Positions 9,873 through 51,558 of a stretch of 64,000 nt of DNA are shown here, in pieces (positions within the stretch are counted from its first letter, which is position 1; the number at the start of each line of letters is the position of its first letter). The DNA comes from a virus (Duplodnaviria; Caudoviricetes). The translations under genes and the position numbers were made by a program. The notes under the pieces are model-generated. The model made no database searches, was not told where the DNA came from, and saw only the letters and a program-made list of their open reading frames with translations. The DNA is taken from IMG/VR virus record IMGVR_UViG_3300032226_000551, positions 32,001 to 96,000 of that record, one strand, 5' to 3'.

Positions 9873-10099
9873 TTATTTTTATTTTTCTTATTTTTCTTAG
9901 TTAAAAGTTCAGGAAATTTTCTTTTTATAACTTTTTTACCTAACAATTTAGGAGTTCTCATGTCTTTAGTAGCATAATTATCATTATTTTTAATATCAGA
10001 TGGTGGATTATATAAAGGTTCTAATGATTGACCCAATACACCGCTAACTGTATTATTTTCTAATATTTTAATTATAGTTTGTTGAAATTTATTAAACAT
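9869..10099 (-). CDS. Small basic hypothetical protein, putative internal head protein
   Basis: 76 aa; leader MFNKFQQTIIKILEN, basic tail. Confidence 0.6.
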   Translation of the reverse strand: MFNKFQQTIIKILENNTVSGVLGQSLEPLYNPPSDIKNNDNYATKDMRTPKLLGKKVIKRKFPELLTKKNKKNKNK

Positions 10100-10122
10100 A
10101 ATATATAATTTAATTAATACTT

Positions 10123-10521
10123 ATGGATTTTTTTGAAAAATATAGATTAGAAATAAACGAAGATGTTAAAATCGATCAATTAAATTTATTGGAGCGTGAA
10201 ATGCAGCATCCAGCCATACGTCACAAATGGGTTTCTAGGTTAATTCAACATAAAAAAAACAAAACTGAATTAGAAAGAAAGAAAAAAACTTTAAAACAAG
10301 AAGTATTAAAAAATATAACAGAAAAAGGAATTCCAACCGGAATTCCTAAAACTGCTATAGACAATAAAGTAGAATCATCAGAAGTGATTCAAAAAATAAA
10401 TCAAGAAATAGAAGATATTACGTTGTTAATTGATTATTTAGAAAGAGTGGAAAAGGTATTTTCGTCTATGAGTTATGATTTTGGGTCTATTAACAATACT
10501 ATTAAAATGGAAATGACATGA
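10123..10521 (+). CDS. uvsY: Recombination mediator UvsY
   Basis: DVKIDQLNL, RHKW, helical, YLERVEK; upstream of uvsW. Confidence 0.8.
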   Translation: MDFFEKYRLEINEDVKIDQLNLLEREMQHPAIRHKWVSRLIQHKKNKTELERKKKTLKQEVLKNITEKGIPTGIPKTAIDNKVESSEVIQKINQEIEDITLLIDYLERVEKVFSSMSYDFGSINNTIKMEMT

Positions 10522-12691: not shown

Positions 12692-13271
12692 AGAAGATTT
12701 AATAGATGATTTAGAAGATGATTTAGAAGAAGAAATCGTTTTGGATGAAAGTGAATCCGAAGATATTGATTCTGATGAAGAAATTTCTGATGAAATTTTA
12801 CTGGATGATGATATCATATCTTTAGATGATGTCATTAAACCAAAAAGAAGAAAAAGAGGAGCGAAAAAAGAAGAATTTTACGTTGAACCGAAAAAATTTG
12901 ACGAAGAGATTTTAAATTATTATGATACTGGTGTTCTAACAAATGAATTAGCCGATATGGTTAGTAAAATAGCTCATAAATTAAGTTATGCTTCAAATTT
13001 TATAAATTACACATATCGTGAAGATATGGTTGGTGATGCTTTAATTAGAATGTTTAAGGCATTGATGTCAAAAAAATATGATAGAGTAAAGGGAACAAAT
13101 CCTTTCTCATATTTTACCAGAATTGCATTTAATGCTTTTAGAAACAGAATCAAAAAAGAAAAACATATCAATGAAACACATTTAAAATACCAAGAAGAGA
13201 TTATGTTTATGTCCGAAAATCAAAGTCTTTATAAAAACAAAAAAAATATATACGGTAATGATCAAAAATAA
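12669..13271 (+). CDS. gp55: Late transcription sigma factor gp55 with acidic N-terminal extension
   Basis: NFINYTYREDMVGDA, NPFSYFTRIAFNAFRNRIKKEK; between uvsW and gp47. Confidence 0.9.
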   Translation: MKKKLYNEEDLIDDLEDDLEEEIVLDESESEDIDSDEEISDEILLDDDIISLDDVIKPKRRKRGAKKEEFYVEPKKFDEEILNYYDTGVLTNELADMVSKIAHKLSYASNFINYTYREDMVGDALIRMFKALMSKKYDRVKGTNPFSYFTRIAFNAFRNRIKKEKHINETHLKYQEEIMFMSENQSLYKNKKNIYGNDQK

Positions 13272-14295
13272 TAAAGTTGGATTATTCACAGATATTCACA
13301 TTGGTTTGTTTCAAGATAGTCCTGTTTGGCATGATATAGTTTTAAACTTTGCTAAATGGTCTGCTAATGAGTTTTTAAACAAGGGAATTGATGACATTAT
13401 TATATGCGGAGACATATTTCACAACAGGTCAGAAATATCGGTGGCAACATTGGACATAGCTAAGAGATTTTTTGATTATTTTAAAGATTTTCAAATATAC
13501 ATATTGGCAGGAAATCATGATAGTTATTTTAAAGATAACAGTACGGTAAATTCAATATCGATTTTTGATGGTTGGAATAACATAAAAATAGTAGATAAAG
13601 AACCGAAACAAATAAAACTCAAAGATAAAACCGCCGCATTGGTTCCTTGGGGTACAACATATCAAGATATACCAAACAGTGATATAATTTTTGGACATTT
13701 TGAGATTTCATCGTTTTACATGAATACATATAAAGTATGTGAACATGGAATGCAGTCGAGTGATCTGTTTAAGAAGTCCAAAACTATTGTATCTGGACAT
13801 TTTCACAAAAAAGATCATCGCAAATATGAAAACGGTGAAATAGTTTATTTGGGAAGTCCATATCAGCAGAATTTTGGAGATACGATGGATCAACGTGGAA
13901 TCTATATCTATGATATAGACAATAATGAATTTGAATTTATTGAAAATGATATATCACCAAAATATTTTAAACTATCTGTTAGTAAAATATTGAGTAATTC
14001 GGATGATATTAAAAATAAAATAGAAAATAACCATGTTAGCTTGGTTGTAGATTGTGAAATAGACTACGAAAACCTCAATTTACTAAGCTCAAAGCTTCAA
14101 AAACACTCGCCAGTAAATTTTAGAATAGATTATCAAGATGTAGAAACAAAAAATGACACCAAAATAGTGGAAAAAAATTTAGAATTTGTTAATATATTAG
14201 ATGATATGGAATTTTATATCAATAATATTGATATAAAAAATAAAAAAGAAGTTTTAGAATATATAAAGGAAATTTACACTCTCAAAAATACATGA
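13258..14295 (+). CDS. gp47: Recombination endonuclease subunit gp47 (Mre11/SbcD-like)
   Basis: DIHIG, CGDIFH, AGNHD, SGHFH, YLGSPYQ. Confidence 0.95.
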   Translation: MIKNNKVGLFTDIHIGLFQDSPVWHDIVLNFAKWSANEFLNKGIDDIIICGDIFHNRSEISVATLDIAKRFFDYFKDFQIYILAGNHDSYFKDNSTVNSISIFDGWNNIKIVDKEPKQIKLKDKTAALVPWGTTYQDIPNSDIIFGHFEISSFYMNTYKVCEHGMQSSDLFKKSKTIVSGHFHKKDHRKYENGEIVYLGSPYQQNFGDTMDQRGIYIYDIDNNEFEFIENDISPKYFKLSVSKILSNSDDIKNKIENNHVSLVVDCEIDYENLNLLSSKLQKHSPVNFRIDYQDVETKNDTKIVEKNLEFVNILDDMEFYINNIDIKNKKEVLEYIKEIYTLKNT

Positions 14296-15077
14296 ACAAT
14301 AACGAAATAGGAATAGGAATAATTGATGTTTATTCGGATGAAGATTTACAAAATTGTATTTCTTCTATACCACAAGAATTTAAAGATAATATTGTAACAG
14401 TTTCAAATAAACGGAAACCTTCAATAGTTTGTAATAGACACTATTCTAATGATATACCATTTGCTACACTTAGAAATTATCTATTAACACAATTAAGAAT
14501 CAAAGGATTTAAATATTATTTTATTTTAAATTCAAATATTAAAATAAAAAATCCTGATATATTCAATAATACAATAAAACTTGCCAATACCTTTGGCACT
14601 TGGTTTATTACAGGACATGGCGATAAAAATGTAACACTAGAAGACGATTCAAACAACTTGTCTTTGAATATTAGTCCAACATTGAATACAAATTTTATAT
14701 TTTTATACTCTGGTATAATTAAAAATTTTGGTTTCTTTGACGAAAGATTTTTTGATACAAAAGATTTGGATGTTTTAGATTATATATTAAAACTTAGAAG
14801 AAAAGAAGTATATCCCCCGAATCATTATAACCCAACAATCGATTCTTCTGATGTTGAAGAATCTTCATCCGAAATCGAAAAAATAAATTTTAAAGATTTT
14901 AGCACAATTCAAAAAAATAATGGAAATATGCAAAAATCATTGGAAATGACTTTTGCATATTTCTATCATGAACACAAATATATACCAAATCAAAATGATC
15001 CAGTTGGTGTAACTCAAGATGAATTGTTTAAATTCATGGAAAAATTACAAGCGCAATATGGAAACAGTCAAAAATAA
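14292..15077 (+). CDS. Degenerate GT-A/GT2-like protein
   Basis: IGIGII start and GFFDERF align with the next two GT2 genes, but FILNSN replaces the acidic EDD motif. Confidence 0.55.
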   Translation: MNNNEIGIGIIDVYSDEDLQNCISSIPQEFKDNIVTVSNKRKPSIVCNRHYSNDIPFATLRNYLLTQLRIKGFKYYFILNSNIKIKNPDIFNNTIKLANTFGTWFITGHGDKNVTLEDDSNNLSLNISPTLNTNFIFLYSGIIKNFGFFDERFFDTKDLDVLDYILKLRRKEVYPPNHYNPTIDSSDVEESSSEIEKINFKDFSTIQKNNGNMQKSLEMTFAYFYHEHKYIPNQNDPVGVTQDELFKFMEKLQAQYGNSQK

Positions 15078-15882
15078 AATTGGTTGCGCTTTAATAACCT
15101 GTGACAGATTGGATTTTTATAAAAAATCCTGTGGTTCTTTGTTAAACTCTATTAAAGATAAAAACATAGAGTGTGTTGTAGTAAACGATGGTATCGAGAA
15201 AATAAAAGAATGTGAATGTTCTTATATAGAAACTACTGGAAAGTGTGGTGTTTCTGTTGCTAAAAATAAAGGATTGGATTTTTTAATTAAAAGCGGATGC
15301 GAACATATATTCTTAATGGAAGACGATATTCAAATTACAAATGGAGAAGTTTTCCAAGCATACATTGATGCATCCAAAAAAACCGGAATAAAACATTTTA
15401 ACTATGCCTTACATGGTAATCACAATTTAAACCGCTTTGGAGAACCAGATATAAGAAAAACTGTAAAATACCCAAACGGAATAGAGGTTGATCTATATAG
15501 TAATGTTTTGGGAGCATTTAGTTATTATCATATCGATGTATTAAACGGTATAGGACTATTTGATGAAGGCTATTATAACGCAATGGAGCATGTTAAGCAT
15601 ACCTATGATGCATCATTAAAGGGTTATACTACGCCTTGGAGATGGTTTGTTGATATACATAATTCATCCACTTATTTGAAAGACATTGTACCCGATCATC
15701 AGCAATCTAAAATAAGAAACGATTCAGATTTTCAAAATACTTTTAAAAAAGGTTTGGATAGGTTTATCGAACAAACCGGATTTAGTGTGGTGCATGGATA
15801 TGGTAAATCGGAACCAATTATATCAGAAGAAGAATGTTTAAAGAATTTAAGAGAAATATGGAAAAAATATCATCAGGAATAG
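15058..15882 (+). CDS. Glycosyltransferase family 2
   Basis: IGCALITCDR, VVVNDG, GVSVAKN, HIFLMEDD, GLFDEGY. Confidence 0.85.
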   Translation: METVKNKIGCALITCDRLDFYKKSCGSLLNSIKDKNIECVVVNDGIEKIKECECSYIETTGKCGVSVAKNKGLDFLIKSGCEHIFLMEDDIQITNGEVFQAYIDASKKTGIKHFNYALHGNHNLNRFGEPDIRKTVKYPNGIEVDLYSNVLGAFSYYHIDVLNGIGLFDEGYYNAMEHVKHTYDASLKGYTTPWRWFVDIHNSSTYLKDIVPDHQQSKIRNDSDFQNTFKKGLDRFIEQTGFSVVHGYGKSEPIISEEECLKNLREIWKKYHQE

Positions 15883-17336
15883 GTGTTGCAATTATAACAT
15901 ATAATAGACCCGACTATTATAAAAGGGTATTAGAATCGATACCTAGAAATATGATAGACTTCTTGGTTGTTGTGAATGACGGTTACGACATTTATACAAA
16001 AGATAACGATGCGGAAATTGTAATTCAAACTAACAAGCAAATGGGTGTTGCTGTTTCAAAGAACTATGCAATCAAAGTGTTGGTGGAGAAATTTAATTGC
16101 GAGCATATCTTCTTAATAGAAGACGATATCATAATAAAAAGACCTGATGTGTTTGAAGCATATATAAAAGCTGCAAATTCAACAGGGATTCATCATTTGT
16201 GTTATGAAAAGGTTGCAGGAAACGAAAAGTCCTTGAAATATACATTAGAACAACCGGATGGTGTTAAATTGGGCTTTTATCACAATCCTCAAGGTGCTTT
16301 TATGTATGTAAATGCGAATATTCTTAAAAAAATAGGATATTTTGATGAAAATTATGTAAATGCGTTTGAACATATAGATTTTGCTTATTCTTTGATACAA
16401 AAAAACGTAGCTCCCCCATTTTGGTATTTTCCTGATCTGCTAAACAGTGAAGATTATATAACAGATATAGAAGGAAGTAATCAAAATTCATCAATAACCA
16501 ATAAAGAGGGATATAATCATAATTGGCAAAGATCCGCTCAATATTTTATAAAAAAATGGGGGAAATTTACAAACGAAATTATAGATGAAGGTATAGATAA
16601 TTTAAAAAACAATATAATTTTCTTACAAACAAATTATAGCAGGAAGAAAAATGTCAATAAGAATCAAAAATTGACCATTGTTGTTCCATATAGAGATAGA
16701 AAGGTAGCATTGGATATATTAATACCGAATTTGATAGGTTATGTTGGAAAACAAGTGGAAAATTATGAAATTATCGTTGTAGAACAAGATGATAACAACC
16801 CTTTTAATAAAGGAAAATTGAACAATATAGGATTTAAACTTAAATCGGAAGATTCTACGTATGTATGTTTTCATGACGTAGACTTAATTCCTGAATTTTC
16901 TGATTATAGTTATCCAGAAAGACCATCACATTTAAGTAGTCATTGTAGCCAGTTTGCATACATTAATATACCAGACAAAATAATGGGGGGTGTAATAACG
17001 TTTAAAAATGAACATTACGAACAAGTAAACGGTTTTAGTAATGAATATGAAGGATGGGGAAAAGAAGACGATGATTTATATTTAAGATGCGAAAGAGATA
17101 ATATAATACCATATAAACATCCATTTGGTAGATATTTTAGCGTTCCGCACAAGTTGAGACTGTCGGACGATAATGAAAAGGAAATGCATAAAATAAATGG
17201 TAAAAGATATACAGAATTTTCAGAAGGAAAAATTGATATAAAAAATGATGGAATAAATACAATATCGAATTATAAAATAAATGAGGTGATTAATATAAAT
17301 CCATTTACAAAACATTATAAAATTAAATATGCATAA
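15858..17336 (+). CDS. GT2 fused to GT7 (beta-1,4-galactosyltransferase-like) domain
   Basis: N-domain ITYNR/HIFLIEDD; C-domain VPYRDR, FNKGKLNNIG, FHDVD, NGFSNEYEGWGKEDDD. Confidence 0.85.
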   Translation: MEKISSGIGVAIITYNRPDYYKRVLESIPRNMIDFLVVVNDGYDIYTKDNDAEIVIQTNKQMGVAVSKNYAIKVLVEKFNCEHIFLIEDDIIIKRPDVFEAYIKAANSTGIHHLCYEKVAGNEKSLKYTLEQPDGVKLGFYHNPQGAFMYVNANILKKIGYFDENYVNAFEHIDFAYSLIQKNVAPPFWYFPDLLNSEDYITDIEGSNQNSSITNKEGYNHNWQRSAQYFIKKWGKFTNEIIDEGIDNLKNNIIFLQTNYSRKKNVNKNQKLTIVVPYRDRKVALDILIPNLIGYVGKQVENYEIIVVEQDDNNPFNKGKLNNIGFKLKSEDSTYVCFHDVDLIPEFSDYSYPERPSHLSSHCSQFAYINIPDKIMGGVITFKNEHYEQVNGFSNEYEGWGKEDDDLYLRCERDNIIPYKHPFGRYFSVPHKLRLSDDNEKEMHKINGKRYTEFSEGKIDIKNDGINTISNYKINEVININPFTKHYKIKYA

Positions 17337-17413
17337 AAAATACAATTTCACTATAGATTATTCGATTAAAGATGTTAATTTTGATAAATGAATAATGTTT
17401 TTTTAAAAGATAT

Positions 17414-18964
17414 ATGACAACTAAAATTTTAATTAAATTTCCAACCAGAGAAAGACCTGAAAAATTCTTTCAAGTATTGAACCTATATTATCAAAAATCA
17501 AAAGATATCAATAATATAGAATTTTTAATATCATGTGACTCGGATGATTCTACCATGAATAATCCAGTAGTAATTAAAAAACTGGAAAATGCTAAAAAAC
17601 ACATCAATTTAAATTATTATTTTGGAAATAGTAAAAGTAAAGTTGAGGCTATCAATTCTGATATTGAAAAAATTAAAAATTGGGACATACTATTATTAGC
17701 TTCCGACGACATGATACCAGTTTGTGATGAATATGATCAAATTATAAGAGATGATATGCTCACATATTATAAAAATGGCGATGGAGTTCTTTGGTATAAT
17801 GATGGTAATAGAAATGACCTTATTACGCTGTGTATTTTTGATAAAAAATATTATGAAAAATTTAATTATATATATAATCCGGAATATACTAGCCTGTGGT
17901 GTGATAATGAATTTACCGATGTTTGTTTATTTTTAAAAAAATGTACAAAAATAAATAAAACTATAATAGAACATGCTCATCCCGCTTATCAAAAAGCAAA
18001 TTTTGATAAATTATATGTTAAAAATGAATCTTTTTTTAAAAAAGACGAAGATATTTATAATAAAAGAAAAATTAAAAATTTTGATTTGTGCATAGATATA
18101 TGCACAGTCGCAGATTCAAAATATTTTCTTCAGGGATTAACATTATTTGAATCTATAAAACAAAAATCATCAATATCTTTCAAGTTTCATTTTTTGTGTA
18201 TAAATGAAGAAGATTACTTAAAACATAAAGACAAATATGAAAATATTATATTTTATAATGCTAAAGATTTTTTAGATAAAAGTAAATTATTATATAATCA
18301 TTACATAAATGATTATAGATATTTTTGTTGGTCATTAGCTTCATTTTTTTCATATTTTTTATTGAAATATGAAAATAAAAATAGTGTAATTTATATAGAT
18401 AGTGATATATGTTTTTATAAAGACATTAAAATTTTATATGAAAAAATAAAAAATAAAGATTGTGCTATATTTAGACATAGACAATTTTCTTTAAATGAAA
18501 ATAGAATGGATGGATTGTTTAATGTTGGTGTTGTTTATTTCAACAACACACCAAACGGCGTTAATGTACTCGGTTGGTGGGCAGATGCTGTTTTAAATAA
18601 AAAATACCCGCATTTAGCTACATGCGGGGATCAGAAATATCTGGAAGCATTTCCTCAAATAGTAGGAGAAGATAATATTTTTATTGATGGTGATATAGGT
18701 CACGGAGCACCGTGGATGTGGCAATTATATGATTTATCAAAAATTAATGATGGTTACATAACTTGGAATGGCGAAAAACAAGAATATTATTTTAGTCATT
18801 TTTCTCAATTTAGTTATGATATAGAAAATAATAAATTTAAACATAGTACATTACACGAACCATATACTAATAATAATCAAATTTTTACTAATCCAGTTTT
18901 AGATCAGCATTATAAAGAATATTTTAACATCATTAAACAAACTAAAAATAAATACAATTTATGA
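17414..18964 (+). CDS. Two-domain glycosyltransferase (GT2-like + GT8/GT77-like)
   Basis: KFPTRER, LLASDDMIP, SLWCDNE; second domain YIDSDI, FNVGVVYF, GDQKYL, FSHFS. Confidence 0.75.
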   Translation: MTTKILIKFPTRERPEKFFQVLNLYYQKSKDINNIEFLISCDSDDSTMNNPVVIKKLENAKKHINLNYYFGNSKSKVEAINSDIEKIKNWDILLLASDDMIPVCDEYDQIIRDDMLTYYKNGDGVLWYNDGNRNDLITLCIFDKKYYEKFNYIYNPEYTSLWCDNEFTDVCLFLKKCTKINKTIIEHAHPAYQKANFDKLYVKNESFFKKDEDIYNKRKIKNFDLCIDICTVADSKYFLQGLTLFESIKQKSSISFKFHFLCINEEDYLKHKDKYENIIFYNAKDFLDKSKLLYNHYINDYRYFCWSLASFFSYFLLKYENKNSVIYIDSDICFYKDIKILYEKIKNKDCAIFRHRQFSLNENRMDGLFNVGVVYFNNTPNGVNVLGWWADAVLNKKYPHLATCGDQKYLEAFPQIVGEDNIFIDGDIGHGAPWMWQLYDLSKINDGYITWNGEKQEYYFSHFSQFSYDIENNKFKHSTLHEPYTNNNQIFTNPVLDQHYKEYFNIIKQTKNKYNL

Positions 18965-19041
18965 ACACATTTAATAATGAAATTATTGATAATTCAAGCC
19001 CTCGACTATATCAATGCTTTTGTACAAAATAACAAAAAAAT

Positions 19042-19764
19042 ATGAAATTATCATTCAATCAAACTTATAGCAATGATCGCAAGATATTATTAGAAGCAAG
19101 ACTTAGGGATAAAAAGTTTATAGAGTTTCTTTCTTTTTTTGATATTAATATTTTCTCATTCCATAACTGTAATGATAATATTCTTGATTTTTTTAAGAAT
19201 ATTAAAAATAAAATACCTAATGTTAAAATACATATTAATAATAATATTAGTTATACACAATGTATAAGAAGATTGCTACGGATAGTAGAAACTCTTAATG
19301 TAAAACATTTTTTCTTTTATCAGGATGATACATTTAGTTGCGATAATAATATATCATTCGATGGTTTGTTAAATTATGTTTTTAAACAAAATGATATAAT
19401 GTTGACATTATATGAAAGAAAAGAATTTTTTGAAGATGGAACTGTACTACTGGAATCGTTTGATGATTTAGATTTATATTCAAATAATACAGAAAATTTT
19501 GTAAAACATAACAGATGGTCTTTTGATGATTCACCATATATATGTACTACTAACTATTTATCGCAAATATATGATGAGAATTATTTGAATCATTCCGATG
19601 TATGGTCAGCCGAATGTTATAATAATTTTAAATTTAAAACTTCACCTATTAATCGTTATATAACTAATAAATCTTTATTTAAAAATTATAATTTTATAGG
19701 TCGTAATAATTGGAATAAAGATGAAGAAATTAAAACACTTAAAGAAAAAAATATACTACCTTAA
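19042..19764 (+). CDS. Putative GT-A-fold protein
   Basis: FFYQDD acidic motif; located in glycosylation island. Confidence 0.45.
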   Translation: MKLSFNQTYSNDRKILLEARLRDKKFIEFLSFFDINIFSFHNCNDNILDFFKNIKNKIPNVKIHINNNISYTQCIRRLLRIVETLNVKHFFFYQDDTFSCDNNISFDGLLNYVFKQNDIMLTLYERKEFFEDGTVLLESFDDLDLYSNNTENFVKHNRWSFDDSPYICTTNYLSQIYDENYLNHSDVWSAECYNNFKFKTSPINRYITNKSLFKNYNFIGRNNWNKDEEIKTLKEKNILP

Positions 19765-19798
19765 TTTTTTTTTAAAAAAATAGTTGCAAATTAAAAAT

Positions 19799-20683
19799 AT
19801 GAAAATAGCATTCGGAATGATTGTTTTTGAAGGTGATTATGTTCTAAAAGAATGTTTAGAACAAGTATATCCTTTTGCTTCACAAATTTTAATAGCAGAA
19901 GGTCCGGTAAATTATTGGCAGAGGCAAGGCAGAACTACTTCTTTAGATCAAACTAATGAAATCTTAGATAATTTCCCAGATCCAGAAAATAAAATTAGAA
20001 TAGTGCATGGTCAATTCAATGAAAAAGATGATCAATGCAAAGCTTACATGCAATATATCAATGATGATATAGATTATATTTGGAATTTAGATTCTGATGA
20101 AATATATAAATCAGAGGATATACAAAAAATTATTAATATATTAAACGAACATCAACCCACTAGTATAGGTGTAAGAAGCTGTTCTTTTTATGGAAGTTTT
20201 GATCATTATTTGACTGGATTTGAACTTAATACAGATAATTTTTTAAGAATTTTTAAATATATCAAAGGTTCTACTTGGCAAACCCACAGACCTCCTACCG
20301 TTCAATACCCTACAGGATCTAATATAGAGAGAAAACATATCAATAGTGATACATTATATAACACATTTGGAATTCAAATGTATCACTATTCTTATGTTTT
20401 TCCTGATCAGGTATACAAAAAAGTTAATTATTATAAAGATAGTGTGAGCAGGGATAATTGCATAGACAATTATTTTAATGAAATTTATTTGCCTTGGGTC
20501 AAAGGTTCTGAACAAGATAAACAAAATATAGAGTCGAAGTTCATTGGTGTACACGAATTTAAACCTCATGTTAGGGGAGAATGTTACACCGCTAAATTTG
20601 AAAATGTTCATCCAGAAGCAATAGAAAAGAATATTTTAAATTTAAAAGAAAAATTTAATTCTCAGCTTAAAAAATATGAATGA
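19799..20683 (+). CDS. Glycosyltransferase (GT2-like)
   Basis: IAFGMIVFEG, IAEG, WNLDSDE DxD motif, MYHYSY. Confidence 0.75.
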   Translation: MKIAFGMIVFEGDYVLKECLEQVYPFASQILIAEGPVNYWQRQGRTTSLDQTNEILDNFPDPENKIRIVHGQFNEKDDQCKAYMQYINDDIDYIWNLDSDEIYKSEDIQKIINILNEHQPTSIGVRSCSFYGSFDHYLTGFELNTDNFLRIFKYIKGSTWQTHRPPTVQYPTGSNIERKHINSDTLYNTFGIQMYHYSYVFPDQVYKKVNYYKDSVSRDNCIDNYFNEIYLPWVKGSEQDKQNIESKFIGVHEFKPHVRGECYTAKFENVHPEAIEKNILNLKEKFNSQLKKYE

Positions 20684-21602
20684 TAAACCTTTAGATTTTT
20701 TTGTTGTGGATTTTGAGTCTATATTAAAAGACGTAAAAATAGAATGTGTTGATAGTCATATCAAAGAATATCTAGAAGGTGGTAGACAAGATATTTTAGA
20801 AAATATTGATTTGTTTTGTGAGAATGTAAGATCTGTAGACAAACCCTTTAAACAATTTGAATTATTTAACAAAATTGATTCAATCAATTCGGATACTATT
20901 ATTGTAATAAGTTTATATTTAGAATTACTACAATACTGGGGTAGACATAATAAAATAAAAGAATTATGTGGATATTATTGCAACAAATATCCAAACAATA
21001 AAATAGTAGTCCATTGGAATCATGATACAGATGCAAAACAAATTTTTAATTTTATAGATGATTATAAAAATTTATATGTATTAAATTTTAATACTAGTTT
21101 GAACCACGAAAGATTTATTATTTTACCTTTTTGGTGTATAAATGATTCTTTTGTAGAAGCTTCTAAAACAAAATTTGCTAACTTGATTTGTTCTCTAAAT
21201 AACGAGTTAAGGTATGAATTATATAATACATTAAATGGTGATCCAAATTTTTATGTTTCACAAAGAGTAGAATATTCAGAATACGAGAATGTATTAAGTT
21301 CTTCTGTTTTTACATTTTGTCCAAAAGGAGTTGGATTATCATCTTATAGATTTTTTGAATGTTTTCATTTGAATACAATACCGATTCTAATTGCAGACGA
21401 TGTTATATTACCTTTTGAAAAGGATTTAGATTATAAAAATTTTATTGTTAAGATACCAGAAAACAAAATTTTAGATTTAAATTATATAAAAAATATATTA
21501 TCTCAAATAAATCAAAATGAATTTTTAGATAAAATAAAAGAAGTAAAAGAATTTTTTACTTTAAAAGGAGCACAAAAAGAAATTTATAAAAAATTAAAAT
21601 GA
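20676..21602 (+). CDS. Exostosin-like (GT47) glycosyltransferase
   Basis: SVFTFCPKGVGLSSYRFFECFHLNTIPILIADDVILPF. Confidence 0.8.
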   Translation: MNDKPLDFFVVDFESILKDVKIECVDSHIKEYLEGGRQDILENIDLFCENVRSVDKPFKQFELFNKIDSINSDTIIVISLYLELLQYWGRHNKIKELCGYYCNKYPNNKIVVHWNHDTDAKQIFNFIDDYKNLYVLNFNTSLNHERFIILPFWCINDSFVEASKTKFANLICSLNNELRYELYNTLNGDPNFYVSQRVEYSEYENVLSSSVFTFCPKGVGLSSYRFFECFHLNTIPILIADDVILPFEKDLDYKNFIVKIPENKILDLNYIKNILSQINQNEFLDKIKEVKEFFTLKGAQKEIYKKLK

Positions 21603-22411
21603 TACCTGTAATTTTTATTCACACTGGTTTGCAAGAGTATTTGTTTTATACGTTAAAACAAGCAACTAAATTTAATGACAATGTATATTTAATTGGTGAT
21701 ATTAATCCTAATTTAAATGCAATTAATTTTTTTAATATGCAAGAATATAATCAAGAATTTGATTTTTTTGAAAAGAATTACATTCATTTAACAACTACTC
21801 CATTTAATTATGAATTATTTTGTTATAAAAGATGGTTTGTTTTAAAGAATTTTATGGAGTCTAAAAAAATAGATGTAGTTTTTTATTGTGATTCTGATGT
21901 ATTGTTATTTTCTAACATAGAAAAAGAATGGATCAATTTTAATCAATATGATTTGACTTTATTACACCGGACAGCACCAGTTTCTTCTTTTATAACTTAT
22001 AGAGGGATTACAAATTTTTGTAATATGTTACAAGAAATATATAATAATAAAAATTCTTATCATTACAAAAAGATAGCTTCTCATTATGATGTAAGAAAAG
22101 AATTTAATCTACCAGGTGGAGTTTGTGATATGACCTTATTTGAATACTTTCATTACAATCATGACTTGGGAGGTGGTCCCGGAAGAGTGGGTGAAATGAT
22201 GGGTATTATCAATGACTCTACCTATGATCATAATATAAACACTTCAGATCAAGATTTTTCAATGAAAAATGGATTAAAAAATGTAAAAATAAAAGATGGC
22301 ATTCCTTACGTATATAATGAAAAATTAAAAAAAGACATAAAATTTAATTCTTTACATTTTCAAGGTGGTTCTAAATATTTTATAAAAATGGCTTATGAAA
22401 AATGTAATTGA
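21599..22411 (+). CDS. Putative nucleotide-sugar transferase (GT-A)
   Basis: CYKRWFVL, YCDSDVL, VCDMTL, SLHFQG. Confidence 0.65.
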   Translation: MIPVIFIHTGLQEYLFYTLKQATKFNDNVYLIGDINPNLNAINFFNMQEYNQEFDFFEKNYIHLTTTPFNYELFCYKRWFVLKNFMESKKIDVVFYCDSDVLLFSNIEKEWINFNQYDLTLLHRTAPVSSFITYRGITNFCNMLQEIYNNKNSYHYKKIASHYDVRKEFNLPGGVCDMTLFEYFHYNHDLGGGPGRVGEMMGIINDSTYDHNINTSDQDFSMKNGLKNVKIKDGIPYVYNEKLKKDIKFNSLHFQGGSKYFIKMAYEKCN

Positions 22412-22997
22412 CTCTTGGAAAAATAAAGAGGTTTTTTTAAAACAGCTAAATTTCAATTTAAATGAAATATTATGCACAGACAATTATCCTGAGCATTGGA
22501 AATCATTTATAGTCTTATTAGATAATTTTAAAAATAAAAAAATATTAGATATTGGATGTGGTTGTGGAACATATTATCAAATATGCAAGAAGCACTTTCC
22601 TCATATAGAATATACCGGAATAGATTATGCCGAAGAAGCAATTTCCTTAGCAAAATCTGTATGGAATTATGACAATTTTTATGTTAAGAATTATACAGAC
22701 TTAACTCCAGATTATGTTAGATCTTTCGATTTAATACATTTAGGAGCAGTATTAGACGTATTACCCAACGGTGATGAAGCTCTTGAATTTATACTAAACC
22801 TTTCAGCTAATAACATTCTCATAGGAAGAATGAAATTAACTGATAAAGAAAGTTATTATGAAATATATCAAGCATATGGTGAAATAGAAACATGCGCTTA
22901 TTACCACAATAAACAAAAATTTATTGATATAGCAAAACAATATAACTATTGTATATATAATATAGAAGATAATTTTTACTTAAAAAAACATGAATGA
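22395..22997 (+). CDS. Class I SAM-dependent methyltransferase
   Basis: ILDIGCGCG, YTGID. Confidence 0.85.
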   Translation: MKNVIDSWKNKEVFLKQLNFNLNEILCTDNYPEHWKSFIVLLDNFKNKKILDIGCGCGTYYQICKKHFPHIEYTGIDYAEEAISLAKSVWNYDNFYVKNYTDLTPDYVRSFDLIHLGAVLDVLPNGDEALEFILNLSANNILIGRMKLTDKESYYEIYQAYGEIETCAYYHNKQKFIDIAKQYNYCIYNIEDNFYLKKHE

Positions 22998-23757
22998 TAA
23001 CATAAGCAATATATTTCCTCAGAAATGGGAAAGGGATGATTTAATTTCTTATTTGGATGAATTTTATGAGTTATATAATTCAAGACCTATAAAAGATAAT
23101 AATGGAGGAATGAAGTCGCCTCATATGTTTTCTGCTTGGTATATAATTAAGAAGCTAAAACCAAAATATTTAATAGAAAGTGGAGTTTGGAAAGGCTTAG
23201 GAACTTGGTTTTTTGAAAAGGCTAGTCCAGAAACTAAAATAATATCGATAGACCCATATCCTCATTATAGAGAATATACCAGTCCTAATGTAATTTATCG
23301 TACAGAAGATTTTTTGATAACTAATTGGAGTAAATTTCCTAAAGAAGACACTTTAATATTTTTTGATGATCATCAAAATTTTTTAGAAAGATTAAAAAAA
23401 GCTCAAGAATGGGGATTTAAAAAGATAATGACAGAAGACAATTATCCATATCAACAAGGTGATTGTTACACTCCAAAAAAAATATTATCTAAAAAGGATT
23501 ATGTGATAGATAATGCTGGTCAAAAACAATGGTTTAATCATAACTTAGAGGATTATAATTATTTTATTAATAATATTAGTATATACCAAGAAATGTATCC
23601 TATATTCAAATCAAATATCACAAGATGGGGAGATTCATGGAATGATGAATATCCTACGCCAAAAGCTTTGTTGGATGAATCTTTTAAAGAAAAATATCCA
23701 GTATATTATAAAGAAAAATTAGATTATACATGGATTTGTTATTTAGAATTGAAATAA
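22990..23757 (+). CDS. Putative methyltransferase (Methyltransf_24-like)
   Basis: LIESGVWKGLGT, ISIDP, FFDDHQ, EDNY. Confidence 0.6.
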   Translation: MNDNISNIFPQKWERDDLISYLDEFYELYNSRPIKDNNGGMKSPHMFSAWYIIKKLKPKYLIESGVWKGLGTWFFEKASPETKIISIDPYPHYREYTSPNVIYRTEDFLITNWSKFPKEDTLIFFDDHQNFLERLKKAQEWGFKKIMTEDNYPYQQGDCYTPKKILSKKDYVIDNAGQKQWFNHNLEDYNYFINNISIYQEMYPIFKSNITRWGDSWNDEYPTPKALLDESFKEKYPVYYKEKLDYTWICYLELK

Positions 23758-23782
23758 TTAAAAAAGGATAATTTAAACATAT

Positions 23783-23819
23783 TATTATAGTTGAAATTCC
23801 ATAAGTTTCGACTATAATA
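23783..23819 (+). promoter_or_regulatory. Sigma70-type promoter inside a 14-bp inverted repeat
   Basis: TTGAAA-N16-TATAAT; arms TATTATAGTTGAAA / TTTCGACTATAATA. Confidence 0.6.
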
Positions 23820-23826
23820 TATCTAT

Positions 23827-24306
23827 ATGTTTGTAAGCAATGATGAAGAAACTTTCTTTTTCTCTTTTTTAAAAGATGATCTAACAGTTTTAGAATATGG
23901 TTCTGGAAAGTCAACCACTCAAATAAGCCAAAAAGTTAAACACTTGGTTTCTGTTGAACATCAGAAACAGTGGTTTGAAGAAGTTATTAAAGCAATACCT
24001 AAAAATTGTTCTTTAATGTTAAAAGAACCTTCAGAATTGTATATAGAAGGAGGTCAGGATGGATCTTATTCTCAGTTTAAAGATTACATAGAAGCACCCA
24101 TAGAACAAGGCCCTTATGATATTATCTTTATAGATGGAAGAGCGCGAGTAGGTTGCGCCTCTGTCTGCCATCTAATGTCTCATGAAAATACACACATTTT
24201 TATTCACGATTTTCATAGGCCAGAATATCAAGAAGCTTTAAAATATCTTGAATTAAAACAAAGAGTAGGTGAAATGGCTCTTTTTAAAATTAAAAAAAAT
24301 GATTAA
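23827..24306 (+). CDS. Putative glycan O-methyltransferase
   Basis: VLEYGSGKST, SVEH, IFIDGRAR, FIHD. Confidence 0.7.
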   Translation: MFVSNDEETFFFSFLKDDLTVLEYGSGKSTTQISQKVKHLVSVEHQKQWFEEVIKAIPKNCSLMLKEPSELYIEGGQDGSYSQFKDYIEAPIEQGPYDIIFIDGRARVGCASVCHLMSHENTHIFIHDFHRPEYQEALKYLELKQRVGEMALFKIKKND

Positions 24307-25225
24307 TTTATTTAATTTAAATAAACATATTTTAGATACCTCAAATTATCAAAATCTTTTACATGATAAGATTGTTACTGATTTTGAAAATGTTATTAAA
24401 AAATACGTAGGAGCTAAACATGCAGTATCTTTTAATAGTGCCACTAATGCTATATTTTTAGCACTTTTAAATAAAAACGTAACAGTCGAAGTACCTAGTA
24501 TGATACCATCCGTGGTACTAAATGCTATTATTACTTCTAATAATCAATATAAATTTACAGATGACACAGAATGGATAGGTAATTCTTATATACTACATAA
24601 ATTTAAAAATTATAAGATAGTAGATTCCGCTCAAAAATTAGAAAAAGATCAATTTAAAAAAGAATGTGATCCTAATGATTTATTAATTTTTAGTTTTTAT
24701 CCTACAAAACCAGTAGGAGGTTGTGATGGAGGAATGATAGTTTCCGATGATGAAGAGAAAATCAATTATTTAAGAGAGATGGCATTCAATGGAATGTCTT
24801 ATGCTAATAATAACTGGGAAAGAGTAGTAAAATATACGGGATATAAAATGTATATGAATAGTATACAAGCAGACATAGCTCTAAGAAATTTTAAATTGTA
24901 TAATAATAAACTTAAAAAATTAAAAAAAATAAGAAATTTATACAACAAAAAATTGGGATATACTAATTCCAGTAATCATTTATATAGAATAGATGTAGAT
25001 GATAGAAATGGATTTATTAAATATATGAAAGATAATGGTGTATTATGTGGTATTCATTACGAAGCAGCACATTTGAATCCGGTTTATGCTCTTTCTGAAT
25101 CAAAATGTCCAATTTCAGAAATTAAATCCACAAAAACCGTATCAATACCTTTCCATGAAAATTTGACAGAACAAGATATATATTGTATATTAGAACTAAT
25201 ATGTCAATGGAACCATATAAATTAA
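24299..25225 (+). CDS. DegT/DnrJ/EryC1/StrS-family sugar aminotransferase (FdtB/QdtB-like)
   Basis: FNSAT, IVDSAQ, FSFYPTK (PLP Lys), GYKMYM, GIHY, SIPFH. Confidence 0.85.
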   Translation: MINLFNLNKHILDTSNYQNLLHDKIVTDFENVIKKYVGAKHAVSFNSATNAIFLALLNKNVTVEVPSMIPSVVLNAIITSNNQYKFTDDTEWIGNSYILHKFKNYKIVDSAQKLEKDQFKKECDPNDLLIFSFYPTKPVGGCDGGMIVSDDEEKINYLREMAFNGMSYANNNWERVVKYTGYKMYMNSIQADIALRNFKLYNNKLKKLKKIRNLYNKKLGYTNSSNHLYRIDVDDRNGFIKYMKDNGVLCGIHYEAAHLNPVYALSESKCPISEIKSTKTVSIPFHENLTEQDIYCILELICQWNHIN

Positions 25226-25602
25226 AATCTTTCGATGATGAAAGAGGTTCTTTATTGCCTCTAGAATTTAGCTCTATTCCTTTTGAAGTTAAAAGGATAT
25301 TTGTAGTTAATAACGTACCTATTAATGTTTTAAGAGGTAATCATTCACATTATAAAACCAAACAATTAATTGTTTGTACTAAGGGTAAGGTTAATGTTAT
25401 ACTTCATGATGGAAAAAAAGAAAAAATATACAATCTTAATAAATTTCAAAATATATTAGTACCTGAACTGATTTGGGATTCTCAAATCTTCTTAACCGAA
25501 GATACAGAACTTTTAGTTTTATGCTCTACCCCATATGATAAAAACGATTATATATTCGATTTTGACTTTTTTTTAAAAATTAAAAACAATGAAAAAAATT
25601 AA
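25201..25602 (+). CDS. dTDP-4-keto-6-deoxyglucose 3,4-ketoisomerase (FdtA/QdtA cupin)
   Basis: DERGSL, IPFEVKRIF, RGNHSH, YDKNDYI. Confidence 0.85.
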   Translation: MSMEPYKLKSFDDERGSLLPLEFSSIPFEVKRIFVVNNVPINVLRGNHSHYKTKQLIVCTKGKVNVILHDGKKEKIYNLNKFQNILVPELIWDSQIFLTEDTELLVLCSTPYDKNDYIFDFDFFLKIKNNEKN

Positions 25603-27388
25603 TTTTAAAAATATTTGTATTAAAAACTTTTTATCAGTAGGTGATAAAAAAATAGATATAGATTTTCAAACTGGCATAAATCTACTAACAGGTATTAATA
25701 AAGATAATAATACAAGAAATGGTGTTGGTAAATCATCCATAATAGAATCTGTATATTGGTGTTTGTTTGGTAGTACTATAAGAGATATAAAAAACGATAA
25801 AATAATTCACAACCAACAAAAAAAAGGATGTGATGTAACATTAAGTTTTGATGTTATTGGTGTAGACTCTGATAAAAACTCATATCAGCTAATAAGAAGC
25901 TTGGGACCGAGTAAAATTCAGTTATTAAAGGATAATGTAGACATAACCTTATCAACGATTCCAGCAAATGATGAATTCATACAAAATTTAATAGGTGCTA
26001 CACCAGAAGTATTCAATAATGCTGTCATCATGACAGCTAACAATACACTTCCCTTCATGGCACAGAAGAAGATAGAGAAAAGAAAATTCATAGAAGGCAT
26101 CTTGAACTTAAATATCTTCACGGAAATGCTTTTAAAGGCAAGATCTGATTTCAATGACACCAAAAAACAAAATGATATTCTTTCTAATAATTTTTTAAAC
26201 CAACAAAAGAATCTAGACATTTTTGAAAGCCAAATTGTAAAAAATAAACAAAAAAAGAAAGATAAGATTGATAGTATCAATGTTACAATTCAAAAAATTA
26301 AAGATGATATAGCATCAACCGAAAAAATAAATGTATCTTTGGATGACATATTAGTAAAAATTAAAGAAAATGATACAAAACTTATTAAATTAGAAACCGG
26401 ATTGACTAAACTAGATGAAGACATCTTAGAATATTCCAAAAAACAAATAGAATATAAAACATATATTCAAAATGAAAAAAATAAGTTAAAAGAATTTGAT
26501 AAAAAGAAAGATTTCTGTCCAACCTGTAATAGAAAATTCGAAAATTTAATAGAAGATAATCACAAATGTTTAAAAGAAGATTGTTTATTGATTATAGAAA
26601 AAAATGAAATGCTTTTAACTGATATCAACGACAAAATTAATGTCAAAAACACAAAAAAACAAGAAATAAAACAATTTATTTTTGGCATAAAAGACAAAAA
26701 TAAAAAATTACAAGAAGAAAAAAATTCCGTAGAGTTAAAAAACCAAAAGATAAACAATTTTAAGGATAAAATAAAAGAATACGAGAGTCAGATAGAAGAA
26801 TTAATAAACGAAAAGGATGCAACTGACGAACAAATAGAAGTAATTAAAAAAGAAATTTGTAAGATAGAAAAAGATTTAGAAAATGTTAAAAAGGAACTGT
26901 CCATTTTAGAAGAAATAAAATTTGTTTTATCAGAAGAAGGCGTGAAAACACATATTATTAAAAAGTTATTAACCTTATTCAATCAAAAAATCAATTTTTA
27001 TTTAAAATCTATGGATGCACCATGCACATGTGAATTTGATGAGATGTTTGAAGAGAAAATTATTAATGTATATGGTAACGAATGCTCTTATTTCAATTTT
27101 AGTGGCGGGGAAAGAAAGAGAATAGACATTTCTGTACTATTTGCATTCCAAGATATTTTAAGATTGTATTCAGGTACATCTTTTTCATTGAGTATTTACG
27201 ATGAATTGTTTGATTCGGCTATAGATGAATCCGGAATAGAGAAAATAATGAATATTTTGAAAAAAAGAGTGGAAGATTATAATGAGTGTATATACATAGT
27301 TTCTCATAATAAGAGTTCTATTAAAAGTAATTTTGATAATATACTGGAAATAGAGAAATATAAGGGAGAAACAAGTTTAAAAACTTGA
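25589..27388 (+). CDS. gp46: Recombination ATPase gp46 (Rad50/SbcC-like)
   Basis: NFLSVG, NGVGKSS, zinc hook CPTC, FSGGE, YDE, VSH. Confidence 0.95.
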   Translation: MKKINFKNICIKNFLSVGDKKIDIDFQTGINLLTGINKDNNTRNGVGKSSIIESVYWCLFGSTIRDIKNDKIIHNQQKKGCDVTLSFDVIGVDSDKNSYQLIRSLGPSKIQLLKDNVDITLSTIPANDEFIQNLIGATPEVFNNAVIMTANNTLPFMAQKKIEKRKFIEGILNLNIFTEMLLKARSDFNDTKKQNDILSNNFLNQQKNLDIFESQIVKNKQKKKDKIDSINVTIQKIKDDIASTEKINVSLDDILVKIKENDTKLIKLETGLTKLDEDILEYSKKQIEYKTYIQNEKNKLKEFDKKKDFCPTCNRKFENLIEDNHKCLKEDCLLIIEKNEMLLTDINDKINVKNTKKQEIKQFIFGIKDKNKKLQEEKNSVELKNQKINNFKDKIKEYESQIEELINEKDATDEQIEVIKKEICKIEKDLENVKKELSILEEIKFVLSEEGVKTHIIKKLLTLFNQKINFYLKSMDAPCTCEFDEMFEEKIINVYGNECSYFNFSGGERKRIDISVLFAFQDILRLYSGTSFSLSIYDELFDSAIDESGIEKIMNILKKRVEDYNECIYIVSHNKSSIKSNFDNILEIEKYKGETSLKT

Positions 27389-27419: not shown

Positions 27420-28727
27420 ATGGCTTTAAAAATAAAAAATTCTTCTGACACTAATAATGGAAATAATGTAGTATATGAATATCAGCCAGTTAAAAGTGGA
27501 GTTCCCTCATTACCACTCGGATGTCCAGTTGGAATGCCAACATATTCGTATGTTGGTTATAAACCAGTCAGAATTCCCTCCGCGCCACCTGTTGAGATGC
27601 CAGAAAGCAATCTACCTAGAGCATTAAATTATTATGCAGACTATGGTGGATGTGGATTCTGGAGAATGATATGGCCTGAATACGTTTTAAATGGTTATCA
27701 GAAGGCATGTATTTCTGGAATGACACAGATGATATTAGATTTGCGTTTTTATGGTTCATTAAAATCCATAAGAATGCAAAGACAGGCAACTCCCGCACAA
27801 AACTCTTTTATAAAAGAACTGCATAAAGTTAAATCTCAAACCGGATATAGATTAATATACGAAATTGATGATATAGTATTTAAAGACGATATCCCCGATT
27901 ATAATAGATGCAAAGATGCATTTGTCGATGAAAACATAGTAAAGAGTATTATGGAAATTATGGGAATGATGGATGAGATTACCGTTACCTGTAAATACAT
28001 GAAGGAATACTATATTTCTAAAACTGGAAATAAAAATGTCACAGTCATTCCCAACTATCCTCCAAAATTTTGGTTAGATAAATTCCATAATAGAGAAAGA
28101 TTACAAAAAACATACGAACAAAATAAGAAAAGACCTAGAATTTTATATTCTGGATCGGGAACACACATCGATGTATTGAATAAAACAGGACTCAATGACG
28201 ATTTCAAGCATGTTACCGATGCTATCATTAAAGCCAGAAAGAAATTTAAATTTGTTTGGAAGGGTTGTTATCCATTAGTAATGAAACCATTTATTGATAA
28301 TGGTGAAATGGAATATATTGATTGGTCGCCTCTATTGGAGTATCCACAAGGATTATATGATGCTAATTGTAATGCGGTCTTTGCTTCGTTACAAGATAAT
28401 GTGTTTAATAAATCCAAGAGTAATATTAAAATGATAGAATCGGGAGGATTAGGACTACCCGGTGCGTTTCAAGACTTGTGTACATACGAAGAAGCAGACT
28501 TCAAATTTAAATCCGGTGATGATTTAATAAATCAGTTGGAACATTTAACTTCCGACTTTGATCGTTACATGAAATATTCCGATAAATCTAGAAAATTCGT
28601 AGAAGGATTATGGTTGGAAGATCATATACAAGAATATGAGGCGATATACTTTACTGCATTTGGTAGTAAAGAAAGAAATGCAATGTCGCCAAGACTTATT
28701 GAGTTGAATCCCGATCAAAAGATATAA
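27420..28727 (+). CDS. GT-B fold glycosyltransferase
   Basis: GGCGFWRMIWP, YEIDD, VIPNY, SGSGTH, NVFNKSKSNIKMIE. Confidence 0.8.
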   Translation: MALKIKNSSDTNNGNNVVYEYQPVKSGVPSLPLGCPVGMPTYSYVGYKPVRIPSAPPVEMPESNLPRALNYYADYGGCGFWRMIWPEYVLNGYQKACISGMTQMILDLRFYGSLKSIRMQRQATPAQNSFIKELHKVKSQTGYRLIYEIDDIVFKDDIPDYNRCKDAFVDENIVKSIMEIMGMMDEITVTCKYMKEYYISKTGNKNVTVIPNYPPKFWLDKFHNRERLQKTYEQNKKRPRILYSGSGTHIDVLNKTGLNDDFKHVTDAIIKARKKFKFVWKGCYPLVMKPFIDNGEMEYIDWSPLLEYPQGLYDANCNAVFASLQDNVFNKSKSNIKMIESGGLGLPGAFQDLCTYEEADFKFKSGDDLINQLEHLTSDFDRYMKYSDKSRKFVEGLWLEDHIQEYEAIYFTAFGSKERNAMSPRLIELNPDQKI

Positions 28728-51552: not shown

Positions 51553-51558
51553 ATACAA

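Follow-up and report, generated by a model that had tools for sequence, protein, structure and literature searches.

In silico analysis of a 64,000 nucleotide stretch of viral DNA (positions 32,001 to 96,000 of IMG/VR record IMGVR_UViG_3300032226_000551, referred to here as the window), coupled with a comparison of related viral loci, established that the interval between genes gp47 and gp46, at 14292-25602 of the window, is a fixed slot with two tiers rather than a recent insertion: a set of glycosyltransferase (GT) genes that is retained throughout a clade of phages, followed by a cassette of GT and sugar-modifying genes that is exchanged between them. We propose, with somewhat less than even confidence, that this island and a further GT gene located just beyond gp46 (x435) together specify a two-tier, soluble oligosaccharide assembly line, that this line is fixed in a clade of uncultured T4-like myoviruses whose genomes measure about 200 kb, and that its product is placed on a virion protein. 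The window is part of a 114-kb viral contig with a CheckV completeness of 54% and a guanine plus cytosine (GC) content of about 28%. The phage from which it derives is an uncultured, low-GC, T4-like phage far removed from any cultured one: the best cultured matches of its DNA polymerase, gp47 and major capsid protein, mostly from cyanomyophages, show only about 30-35% identity, and a megablast search of cultured phages with window positions 13000-26000 returned no match.

A fixed slot with a constant core and an exchangeable cassette

The local gene order is an HNH gene, uvsW, gp55, gp47, 13 plus-strand open reading frames (ORFs; i01 to i13), gp46, x435 (an ORF of 435 amino acids) and gp43. 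The 13 ORFs of the island are co-oriented and so tightly packed that the sole gaps in the ORF listing measure 78, 78, 20 and 70 nt; the start of i01 overlaps the stop of gp47 (ATGA), and gp46 begins 14 nt within i13. The arrangement is real, and chance is excluded as its origin. An earlier note on this DNA had described 13 co-oriented, mostly overlapping genes between gp47 and gp46, with about ten GT-like domains, three methyltransferases, an aminotransferase and a ketoisomerase. The ORF listing and the Pfam matches of the flanking genes bear out the first part of that description, and the second part also holds, albeit with differing degrees of certainty: the island contains ten GT or GT-like domains, of which one is degenerate (i01) and one is assigned by motif and context only (i08), and beside these it encodes a DegT aminotransferase, a QdtA/FdtA ketoisomerase and three methyltransferases, one of them clear and two weak.

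When viral contigs were scanned with gp47, 54 related loci with 47-94% identity were found. Where enough downstream sequence was available, an i01 orthologue was found directly after gp47 in every case (41/41), followed by an i02-like gene (37 of 37 loci) and then by a third gene of the GT-A type (35 of 35). The distance from gp47 to gp46 was 4.3-9.7 kb in 17 relatives as compared to 11.3 kb here, and the smallest island (L029) encodes only i01, i02, i03 and a two-domain i04-like protein; such minimal islands carry no sugar-modifying genes. As the slot is occupied clade-wide, the term 'inserted', which the earlier note had applied to the island, is misleading. The same note had named a recently captured and decaying host lipopolysaccharide (LPS) locus as one of the outcomes that would refute its reading, and this was rejected: the GC content is uniform across the island and matches that of the phage, all genes are intact and overlapping, and the genes proximal to gp47 are present across the clade.

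Beyond this constant core the content of the slot changes abruptly. In blastn comparisons with the nearest relatives (L007, L013 and L062) DNA identity was 90-96% through the end of i03 and 80% across the N-terminal domain of i04, was lost at position 18087 and was regained at 25549-25619. The left break falls at residue 225 of i04, where its two domains join, such that the C-terminal domain of this protein belongs to the exchanged part. The gene set of the cassette was found to be near-collinear in an otherwise unrelated phage contig, L144, with 46-75% amino acid identity; there it adjoins phoH, and neither gp46 nor gp47 is nearby. Genes of the cassette also occur in L154, in shuffled order. 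The variable parts of the relatives encode GT2, GT6, GT7, GT11 and GT47 enzymes, FkbM, CmcI, O- and C-methyltransferases, GDP-mannose dehydratase and epimerases.

A second constant element is x435, which is located between gp46 and gp43 and thus beyond the region marked by the earlier note. In 80 loci, kept from 295 matching viral stretches, it is 66-98% identical and more conserved than gp46. It probably belongs to the same system as the island.

With regard to expression, near-consensus sigma-70-type promoters (TTGAAA-16-TATAAT) are present at 23758-23826 and 10082-10109, and as the start codons of i11 and of an ORF at 10123, respectively, follow at a distance of only 8-14 nt, the transcripts of both genes would be almost leaderless. 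Scans for promoters and for TATAAATA showed no enrichment over shuffles in this AT-rich DNA, and expression timing therefore rests on gene order and on these two good sigma-70-like sites only.

Predicted enzymes and sugar chemistry

The constant tier opens with i01, a degenerate paralogue of the two GT-A proteins that follow it. In alignments the EDD motif of i02 and of the N-terminal domain of i03 is replaced by NSN, TSN or HSD in 12 of 12 i01 orthologues, which are kept at 37-98% identity despite the loss of catalytic motifs, and i01 would probably serve as a non-catalytic partner, for example in acceptor binding or scaffolding. Foldseek neighbours of the i02 model include B4GALNT1, POMGNT1, TarP and GnT-I (E down to 1.5e-9), while fold matches in BFVD include GTs of Bandra megavirus and Terrestrivirus; the fold of i02 was considered as a pointer to the acceptor and rejected, because these generic GT-A neighbours use protein, lipid and teichoic-acid acceptors alike. 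The N-terminal domain of i03 matches gp98 of Mycobacterium phage Pacc40 (E 3e-11), and its C-terminal domain matches Pfam Glyco_transf_7N (1e-20) and 7C (3e-17) as well as beta4GalT7/T1 in the PDB (2e-24). For i04, the Atlas structure comparison assigns residues 3-225 to a viral GT and residues 226-516 to GT8/Nucleotid_trans, and its orthologues match the Pfam families GT8 (9e-5), Nucleotid_trans (1e-3) and GT2 (5e-4).

The model of x435 (predicted local distance difference test score, pLDDT, of only 64.9) aligned in VIA-align with sucrose-phosphate synthase (Z 18.4) and BshA (Z 18.0); the model is of middling quality, and its matches are to generic GT4-like enzymes. No relative of x435 was found in a scan of bacterial genomes, and sequence-only PDB searches gave nothing useful for x435, for i04, for the joint profile of i02 and the i03 N-terminal domain, or for i08. 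We propose that the constant tier, namely the degenerate i01, the active GT-A domains of i02 and of the i03 N-terminus, the GT7-like i03 C-terminus, the GT-A domain at the i04 N-terminus and the GT-B protein x435, would assemble a core of about five to six sugar residues. As a separate observation, phapecoctaviruses carry four adjacent GT genes beside primase/helicase and DNA polymerase genes (L143, Escherichia phage nepoznato, record 104046-107190), and one of these replication-module GTs is a distant homologue of x435, with about 24% identity.

The cassette would constitute the second tier, traded between phages, and comprises a GT8/77-like domain, a GT-A-like protein, a GT2, a GT47 and a candidate GT, in addition to the methyltransferases and the amino-sugar pair. 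The GT-A-like protein, i05, has no Pfam or PHROG match, and its best feature-match cluster is mostly from Nucleocytoviricota. The candidate GT, i08, has no Pfam or PDB match even by profile, and none of its at least 226 metagenomic homologues carries a Pfam domain. As hhalign showed no relation of i08 to the GT-A profile, its assignment as a candidate GT is by motif and context only; a distant homologue is located between GT2 and GT4 genes, next to Wzy, in an O-antigen-type cluster of Kosakonia, and the i08 family is best regarded as a candidate for an unclassified GT family. Members of this family were also observed in many phage contigs (loci L157-L186) and, with 23-43% identity, in Bacteroidota, Verrucomicrobiota, Kosakonia and other genomes, and a protein identical to i08 is recorded on a 213,079-base contig that is probably a near-complete assembly of the same phage.

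Among the methyltransferases, i09 finds its best PDB matches in the N-methyltransferases BpumL and BamL (3e-7) and is possibly an N-methyltransferase itself; the best PDB match of an i10 profile built from 3 orthologues is CmcI (E 0.16). The translation of i12, whose likely start is the ATG at 24299, contains the lysine motif SFYPTK, and the His pair of i13 is visible in its translation. Both enzymes of the pathway to a deoxythymidine diphosphate (dTDP)-3-amino-3,6-dideoxyhexose, the 3,4-ketoisomerase and the pyridoxal phosphate (PLP)-dependent aminotransferase, are encoded, by adjacent and overlapping genes.

The island proteins contain no membrane segments, as no 19-residue window in any of the 13 exceeds a Kyte-Doolittle value of 1.6. 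The search for families was extended to five genomes, namely the incomplete contig of the phage itself and four relatives that are 92-100% complete. Neither the initiating transferases PF02397 (WbaP-type) and PF00953 (WecA-type) nor the flippase PF01943 (Wzx) was found in any of the five (Wzy was not searched separately), in agreement with the earlier statement that membrane anchors and flippases are lacking. The thymidylyltransferase family PF00483 was likewise found in 0 of 5 genomes, and the 4,6-dehydratase family PF16363 (RmlB), which is not in the incomplete contig of the phage itself, occurs only within the islands of two relatives, G002 and G003; the substrate dTDP-4-keto-6-deoxyglucose is probably host-derived. 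Since minimal islands contain no sugar-modifying genes, the constant tier may be expected to draw on ordinary host nucleoside diphosphate (NDP)-sugars. In the cassette, i13 followed by i12 would convert host dTDP-4-keto-6-deoxyglucose into dTDP-3-amino-3,6-dideoxyhexose, the amine of which may stay free or become N-methylated because no N-acyltransferase is present; i09 may carry out this N-methylation, with i10 and i11 O-methylating sugars. The assembly of a complex methylated oligosaccharide, which had been suggested from the sequence earlier, can thus be retained as a soluble cytoplasmic line that includes a 3-amino-3,6-dideoxyhexose, but DNA as its target is not supported, as none of the base-hydroxylation routes searched for was found in the five genomes.

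Table 1. Positions and supporting matches of the island genes, their borders and associated elements (window coordinates)
Feature	Position	Strand	Evidence and remarks
gp47 (SbcD/Mre11-like nuclease subunit), left border	13258..14295	+	Pfam Metallophos 4e-08; about 30% identical to cyanophage gp47
i01, degenerate GT-A paralogue, clade-conserved	14292..15077	+	phrog_2456 only E 0.0015; DxD and NDG motifs lost
i02, active-looking GT-A	15019..15882	+	EDD kept; phrog_2456 5e-20; AlphaFold2 pLDDT 89.6
i03, two-domain GT: N-terminal GT-A (i02 paralogue), C-terminal GT7 beta-1,4-galactosyltransferase-like	15834..17336	+	
i04, two-domain GT	17414..18964	+	phrog_14945 1e-18; N-terminal domain (residues 1-225) clade-conserved; C-terminal domain GT8/GT77-like, part of cassette
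Swappable cassette, i04 C-terminal domain through i13	18088..25549	+	No DNA similarity to nearest relatives
i05, GT-A-like, virus-restricted family	19042..19764	+	Structure level only: Atlas model, template modelling score 0.67-0.72 to viral GT2 and HtrL clusters
i06, GT2 glycosyltransferase	19784..20683	+	Pfam Glycos_transf_2 3.5e-07; L144 orthologue 75% identical
i07, GT47 exostosin-like (GT-B)	20676..21602	+	Pfam Exostosin_GT47 6e-18, RXYLT1_C 2e-4
i08, candidate GT, family of about 270 amino acids	21599..22411	+	Invariant DSD, GGVCDMT and HFQGG motifs
i09, class I S-adenosylmethionine (SAM) methyltransferase	22395..22997	+	Pfam Methyltransf_31/12/23/25/11, E 3e-12 to 1e-7
i10, CmcI/rhamnosyl-O-methyltransferase-like, weak	22990..23757	+	Pfam Methyltransf_24 E 0.064; glycine-rich SAM motif and FFDDH in translation
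Sigma-70-like promoter (TTGAAA-16-TATAAT), within the gap of 70 nt that precedes i11	23791..23818	+	11/12 match; lead only
i11, small class I methyltransferase-like, weak	23827..24306	+	Pfam Methyltransf_24 E 0.0074, match 1-104/105; L144 orthologue 61%
i12, DegT/FdtB/QdtB-type PLP sugar aminotransferase	24269..25225	+	Pfam DegT_DnrJ_EryC1 2e-34; NCBIfam PseC 8e-27
i13, dTDP-4-keto-6-deoxyglucose 3,4-ketoisomerase (QdtA/FdtA type)	25183..25602	+	Pfam FdtA 9e-35; PDB QdtA 2e-22, FdtA 2e-16
gp46 (SbcC/Rad50-like), right border	25589..27388	+	Pfam SMC_N and AAA_23, about 1e-13; 47-79% identical in relatives
x435, extra GT-B (GT4-like)	27420..28727	+	Pro-rich N-terminal extension (about 65 amino acids); phrog_7162 7e-20

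The acceptor

As the core enzymes are constant while the decoration varies, we infer that the acceptor is itself constant and probably encoded by the phage, and the phage's own proteins look more likely to fulfil this role than the phage DNA. The acceptor that we tentatively favour is a virion protein, to which the sugars would be added in the cytoplasm prior to or in the course of assembly; the particle would then display a surface glycan that varies, comparable to those of glycosylated mycobacteriophages and of chloroviruses. Across 50,697 records of cultured phages, 311-321 of the about 350 matches to i02 and to the N-terminal domain of i03 were Mycobacterium phages, among them Myrna and members of cluster F, for instance Pacc40 (gp98), and this homology may be taken as a lead, and only as a lead, towards a protein acceptor. 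A more elaborate form of this proposal, in which the clade as a whole practises autonomous protein glycosylation in the style of giant viruses, with a dead GT-A as acceptor-recognition subunit, a GT-B as initiator and a traded cassette capping the core so as to confer a lineage-specific glycotype, is conceivable, albeit doubtful.

A number of observations weigh against a virion acceptor. The link to mycobacteriophages amounts to only 25-31% identity over one GT-A domain, and no island protein matched Che8 gp108-110 in BLASTP at E<0.01, the only match being to Pacc40 gp98 (3e-12). A search for an obvious acceptor with Ser/Thr-rich tails or collagen-like repeats found no convincing one: the major capsid protein is devoid of a Ser/Thr-rich C-terminal tail, the about 15 extra residues at its end not being rich in Ser/Thr, and mucin-like stretches were encountered only in a gp5-like baseplate hub and in fibre-like proteins. 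Linkers are common in such proteins in any case, and the linker-like stretches were accordingly rejected as evidence for an acceptor. The island is located in the early/replication block near sigma-70-like promoters and away from the late structural genes, although the GT genes of mycobacteriophages are likewise far from their structural genes. Peripheral GTs of the LPS core and O-antigen are also soluble, so that a lipid-linked host acceptor is compatible with the solubility of the island proteins, and published views of similar clusters favour modification of the host surface, without experiments (PMC7029224, PMC12801897). As regards the gp5-like hub itself (window 42351-43772, minus strand), its oligonucleotide/oligosaccharide-binding fold is apparently split by an M15-type peptidase-like insert, assigned by eye, and its mucin-like stretches comprise 34 Ser, Thr or Pro among 60 positions at residues 285-345 and a poly-Ser/Thr run at 370-400, which may represent a possible acceptor or a mere linker.

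The main rival is remodelling of the host LPS or lipooligosaccharide (LOS), whereby the soluble phage GTs would act at the inner host membrane on lipid A-core (LOS) or on undecaprenyl pyrophosphate-linked units, to be exported by the MsbA, Wzx or ATP-binding cassette systems of the host. The altered cell surface might, for example, block superinfection or prevent progeny from re-adsorbing to debris. Pelagimyophage and cyanomyophage clusters of the GT/LPS type have been interpreted in this way (PMC7029224, PMC12801897). The reading is consistent with the presence of GT8, GT2, GT4-like and FdtA/DegT families, which are typical of LPS and O-antigen pathways, with the Wzy neighbour of the Kosakonia i08 homologue, and with the resemblance of x435 to membrane-associated GT-B enzymes of the WaaG, WbnH and PimA type (Z 14-16); in addition, early-gene placement suits a takeover function, and the inner LPS core would satisfy the requirement for an invariant acceptor. 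However, the five genomes encode neither of the initiating phosphoglycosyltransferases nor the flippase that were searched for, an invariant core of about six GT domains would be ill-suited to host acceptors that vary between strains, and it is unusual for Gram-negative LPS to involve GT7, GT47, GT6 and GT11 enzymes together with dense sugar methylation. The host-surface reading has no experimental backing from any phage, and we consider it unlikely, albeit less so than the two possibilities considered below.

Another soluble acceptor, such as a non-structural protein of phage or host or a small molecule, could also be envisaged, leading for example to a regulatory modification like the glycosylation of Skp1 in eukaryotes or to a glycosylated metabolite. 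All island enzymes are soluble, the degenerate i01 might be devoted to binding the acceptor, and related viral GT clusters in the Atlas combine GT7 domains with the N-acetylglucosamine transferase family PF11397, which we take to be the family of the cytoplasmic Skp1 enzyme. There is no positive evidence for such an acceptor, however, and the variable outer cassette better fits a molecule that is exposed at a surface or targeted by defence than an internal regulator, which makes this option quite improbable.

The possibility that the GTs extend a modified base of the phage DNA with an oligosaccharide, as an elaboration of the alpha- and beta-glucosylation of T4 that would evade restriction and clustered regularly interspaced short palindromic repeat (CRISPR) systems, was also weighed. 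The earlier note had pointed out that the alpha-glucosyltransferase of T4 lies beside gene 47, and the T4 gene order confirms this: it runs 55, a-gt, 47, 46, as compared to gp55, gp47, island, gp46, x435 and gp43 here, so that both genomes have a GT gene in the gene-47 replication block. x435 also shares the GT-B fold with the T4 alpha-glucosyltransferase (Z 13.8) and beta-glucosyltransferase (Z 11.0), phage DNA GTs have been recruited from enzyme families of LPS and teichoic-acid synthesis and add up to trisaccharides (10.1101/2023.12.21.572611, PMC13326640), and hypervariability would suit an arms race with modification-dependent nucleases. Yet x435 ranks the two T4 enzymes below many GT4 enzymes in structure comparison and has no detectable sequence relation to the alpha-glucosyltransferase (hhalign probability 0.6%). 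The positional parallel, although real, is the sole support for a DNA target. A chain made by 6-10 GT domains would moreover far exceed the DNA glycans described in the cited studies, and would presumably impose a burden on packaging.

In the pathways described in the cited studies, DNA glycosylation starts from a hydroxyl-bearing pyrimidine, which is provided either by a thymidylate-synthase homologue (yielding 5-hydroxymethylcytosine, 5-hydroxymethyluracil or 5-hydroxycytosine) or by a C5-methyltransferase together with a TET-type dioxygenase (10.1101/2023.12.21.572611; PMC13326640). When the five genomes were profiled for these DNA-modification families, neither route was found: the ThyA-type hydroxymethylase/hydroxylase family PF00303 and the C5 DNA methyltransferase family PF00145 were each present in 0 of 5, as was the TET/JBP family PF12851, for which there is no positive control, as the control genomes do not contain it. 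As four relatives with 92-100% completeness contain no ThyA-type hydroxylase, TET/JBP protein or C5-methyltransferase, DNA glycosylation is disfavoured, and we judge it highly improbable; phage DNA, one of the two targets proposed in the earlier note, is not supported, given that the very genes it suggested looking for, a hydroxymethylase, a TET/JBP protein and a thymidylate-synthase homologue, were not found in the five genomes, whereas its other target, virion proteins, is still plausible.

Relation to known systems and implications

Hypervariable glycan clusters in aquatic T4-like phages are already published (PMC7029224, PMC12801897), and the description of the island as an undescribed system was too strong, though the published GT/LPS-type clusters are situated at other sites. 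LPS-type or cell-wall clusters have been described as the host-recognition cluster of pelagimyophages (PMC7029224) and in the cyanomyophages S-SCSM2R, S-SCSM1 and P-SSM2 (PMC12801897), and share with the present island a large number of GTs, enzymes that modify NDP-sugars and a variable content. In pelagimyophages, however, the clusters are found mainly in the VrlC-gp14 host-recognition region, with smaller ones scattered (PMC7029224), as opposed to the gp47/gp46 slot here. In S-SCSM2R the cluster corresponds to ORFs 236-310 and only one small gene separates gp47 from gp46, an interval that holds two genes in T4. The invariant GT-A trio with one degenerate member, the GT7 domain, the GT-B gene after gp46 and the break at a domain junction set the present island apart from the published aquatic clusters; in the literature searched, no mention was found of the gp47/gp46 slot, of an invariant core with a degenerate member, of a GT-B gene after gp46 or of a cassette boundary at a domain junction.

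With regard to a virion protein as acceptor, the mycobacteriophages Che8 (cluster F), Corndog and Myrna are reported to use GTs of their own to glycosylate capsid and tail tube (Freeman et al. 2023, as summarised in PMC12363180, PMC11256854 and PMC12619734). These phages share with ours soluble, cytoplasmic phage GTs that are encoded away from the structural genes, and the nearest cultured homologues of i02 and the i03 N-terminal domain are GTs of cluster F mycobacteriophages and Myrna; they have 2-4 GT genes as against about 11 GT domains here, and their acceptors are C-terminal extensions of the capsid and tail tube proteins, no such extension being seen on the capsid protein of our phage. 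The adjacent ketoisomerase and DegT aminotransferase genes recall the QdtA/QdtB and FdtA/FdtB pathways of S-layer and O-antigen glycans; they differ in that RmlA and RmlB are not in the incomplete contig, no N-acyltransferase is present and the N-methyltransferase-like i09 is encoded nearby. Autonomous glycosylation machineries are known from giant viruses, as in the multi-domain GT-methyltransferases of chloroviruses and the gene clusters for the fibril glycans of mimivirus. These have in common with the island soluble multi-domain GTs, sugar methyltransferases, rare-sugar enzymes, GT7 and GT47 families and a conserved core with variable decoration, but the homology is at the level of fold or family only, and the genes studied here belong to a tailed bacteriophage.

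Some further observations were made outside the island. In the close relatives L005 (2437-3434) and L010 (1970-2967) an insertion of about 1 kb interrupts the gp55 match, and L007 (9086-10016) has about 0.9 kb more than the window between gp55 and gp47; these are likely to be mobile elements, be it a homing endonuclease, an intron or an intein. The large terminase ORF of the window (48652-51558, minus strand) is unusually long at 968 amino acids, and its PHROG matches form two blocks (42-726 and 459-861), a pattern suggestive of an insertion, for instance of an intein.

Should a virion protein prove to be the acceptor, virion glycosylation would extend beyond a few mycobacteriophage cases to an abundant clade of uncultured aquatic myoviruses, with a core-plus-antenna design and cassette exchange that would bear on host recognition, on the grazing and aggregation of particles and on the evolution of phage 'serotypes'. 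If the acceptor were instead host LPS or LOS, this would be the first defined lytic-phage system to rebuild the host surface by means of soluble enzymes only. With either acceptor, the locus is a source of many unstudied GTs, including a conserved degenerate GT-A and the Pfam-less i08 family shared with bacterial O-antigen clusters, and represents a clean natural experiment in modular glycan evolution.

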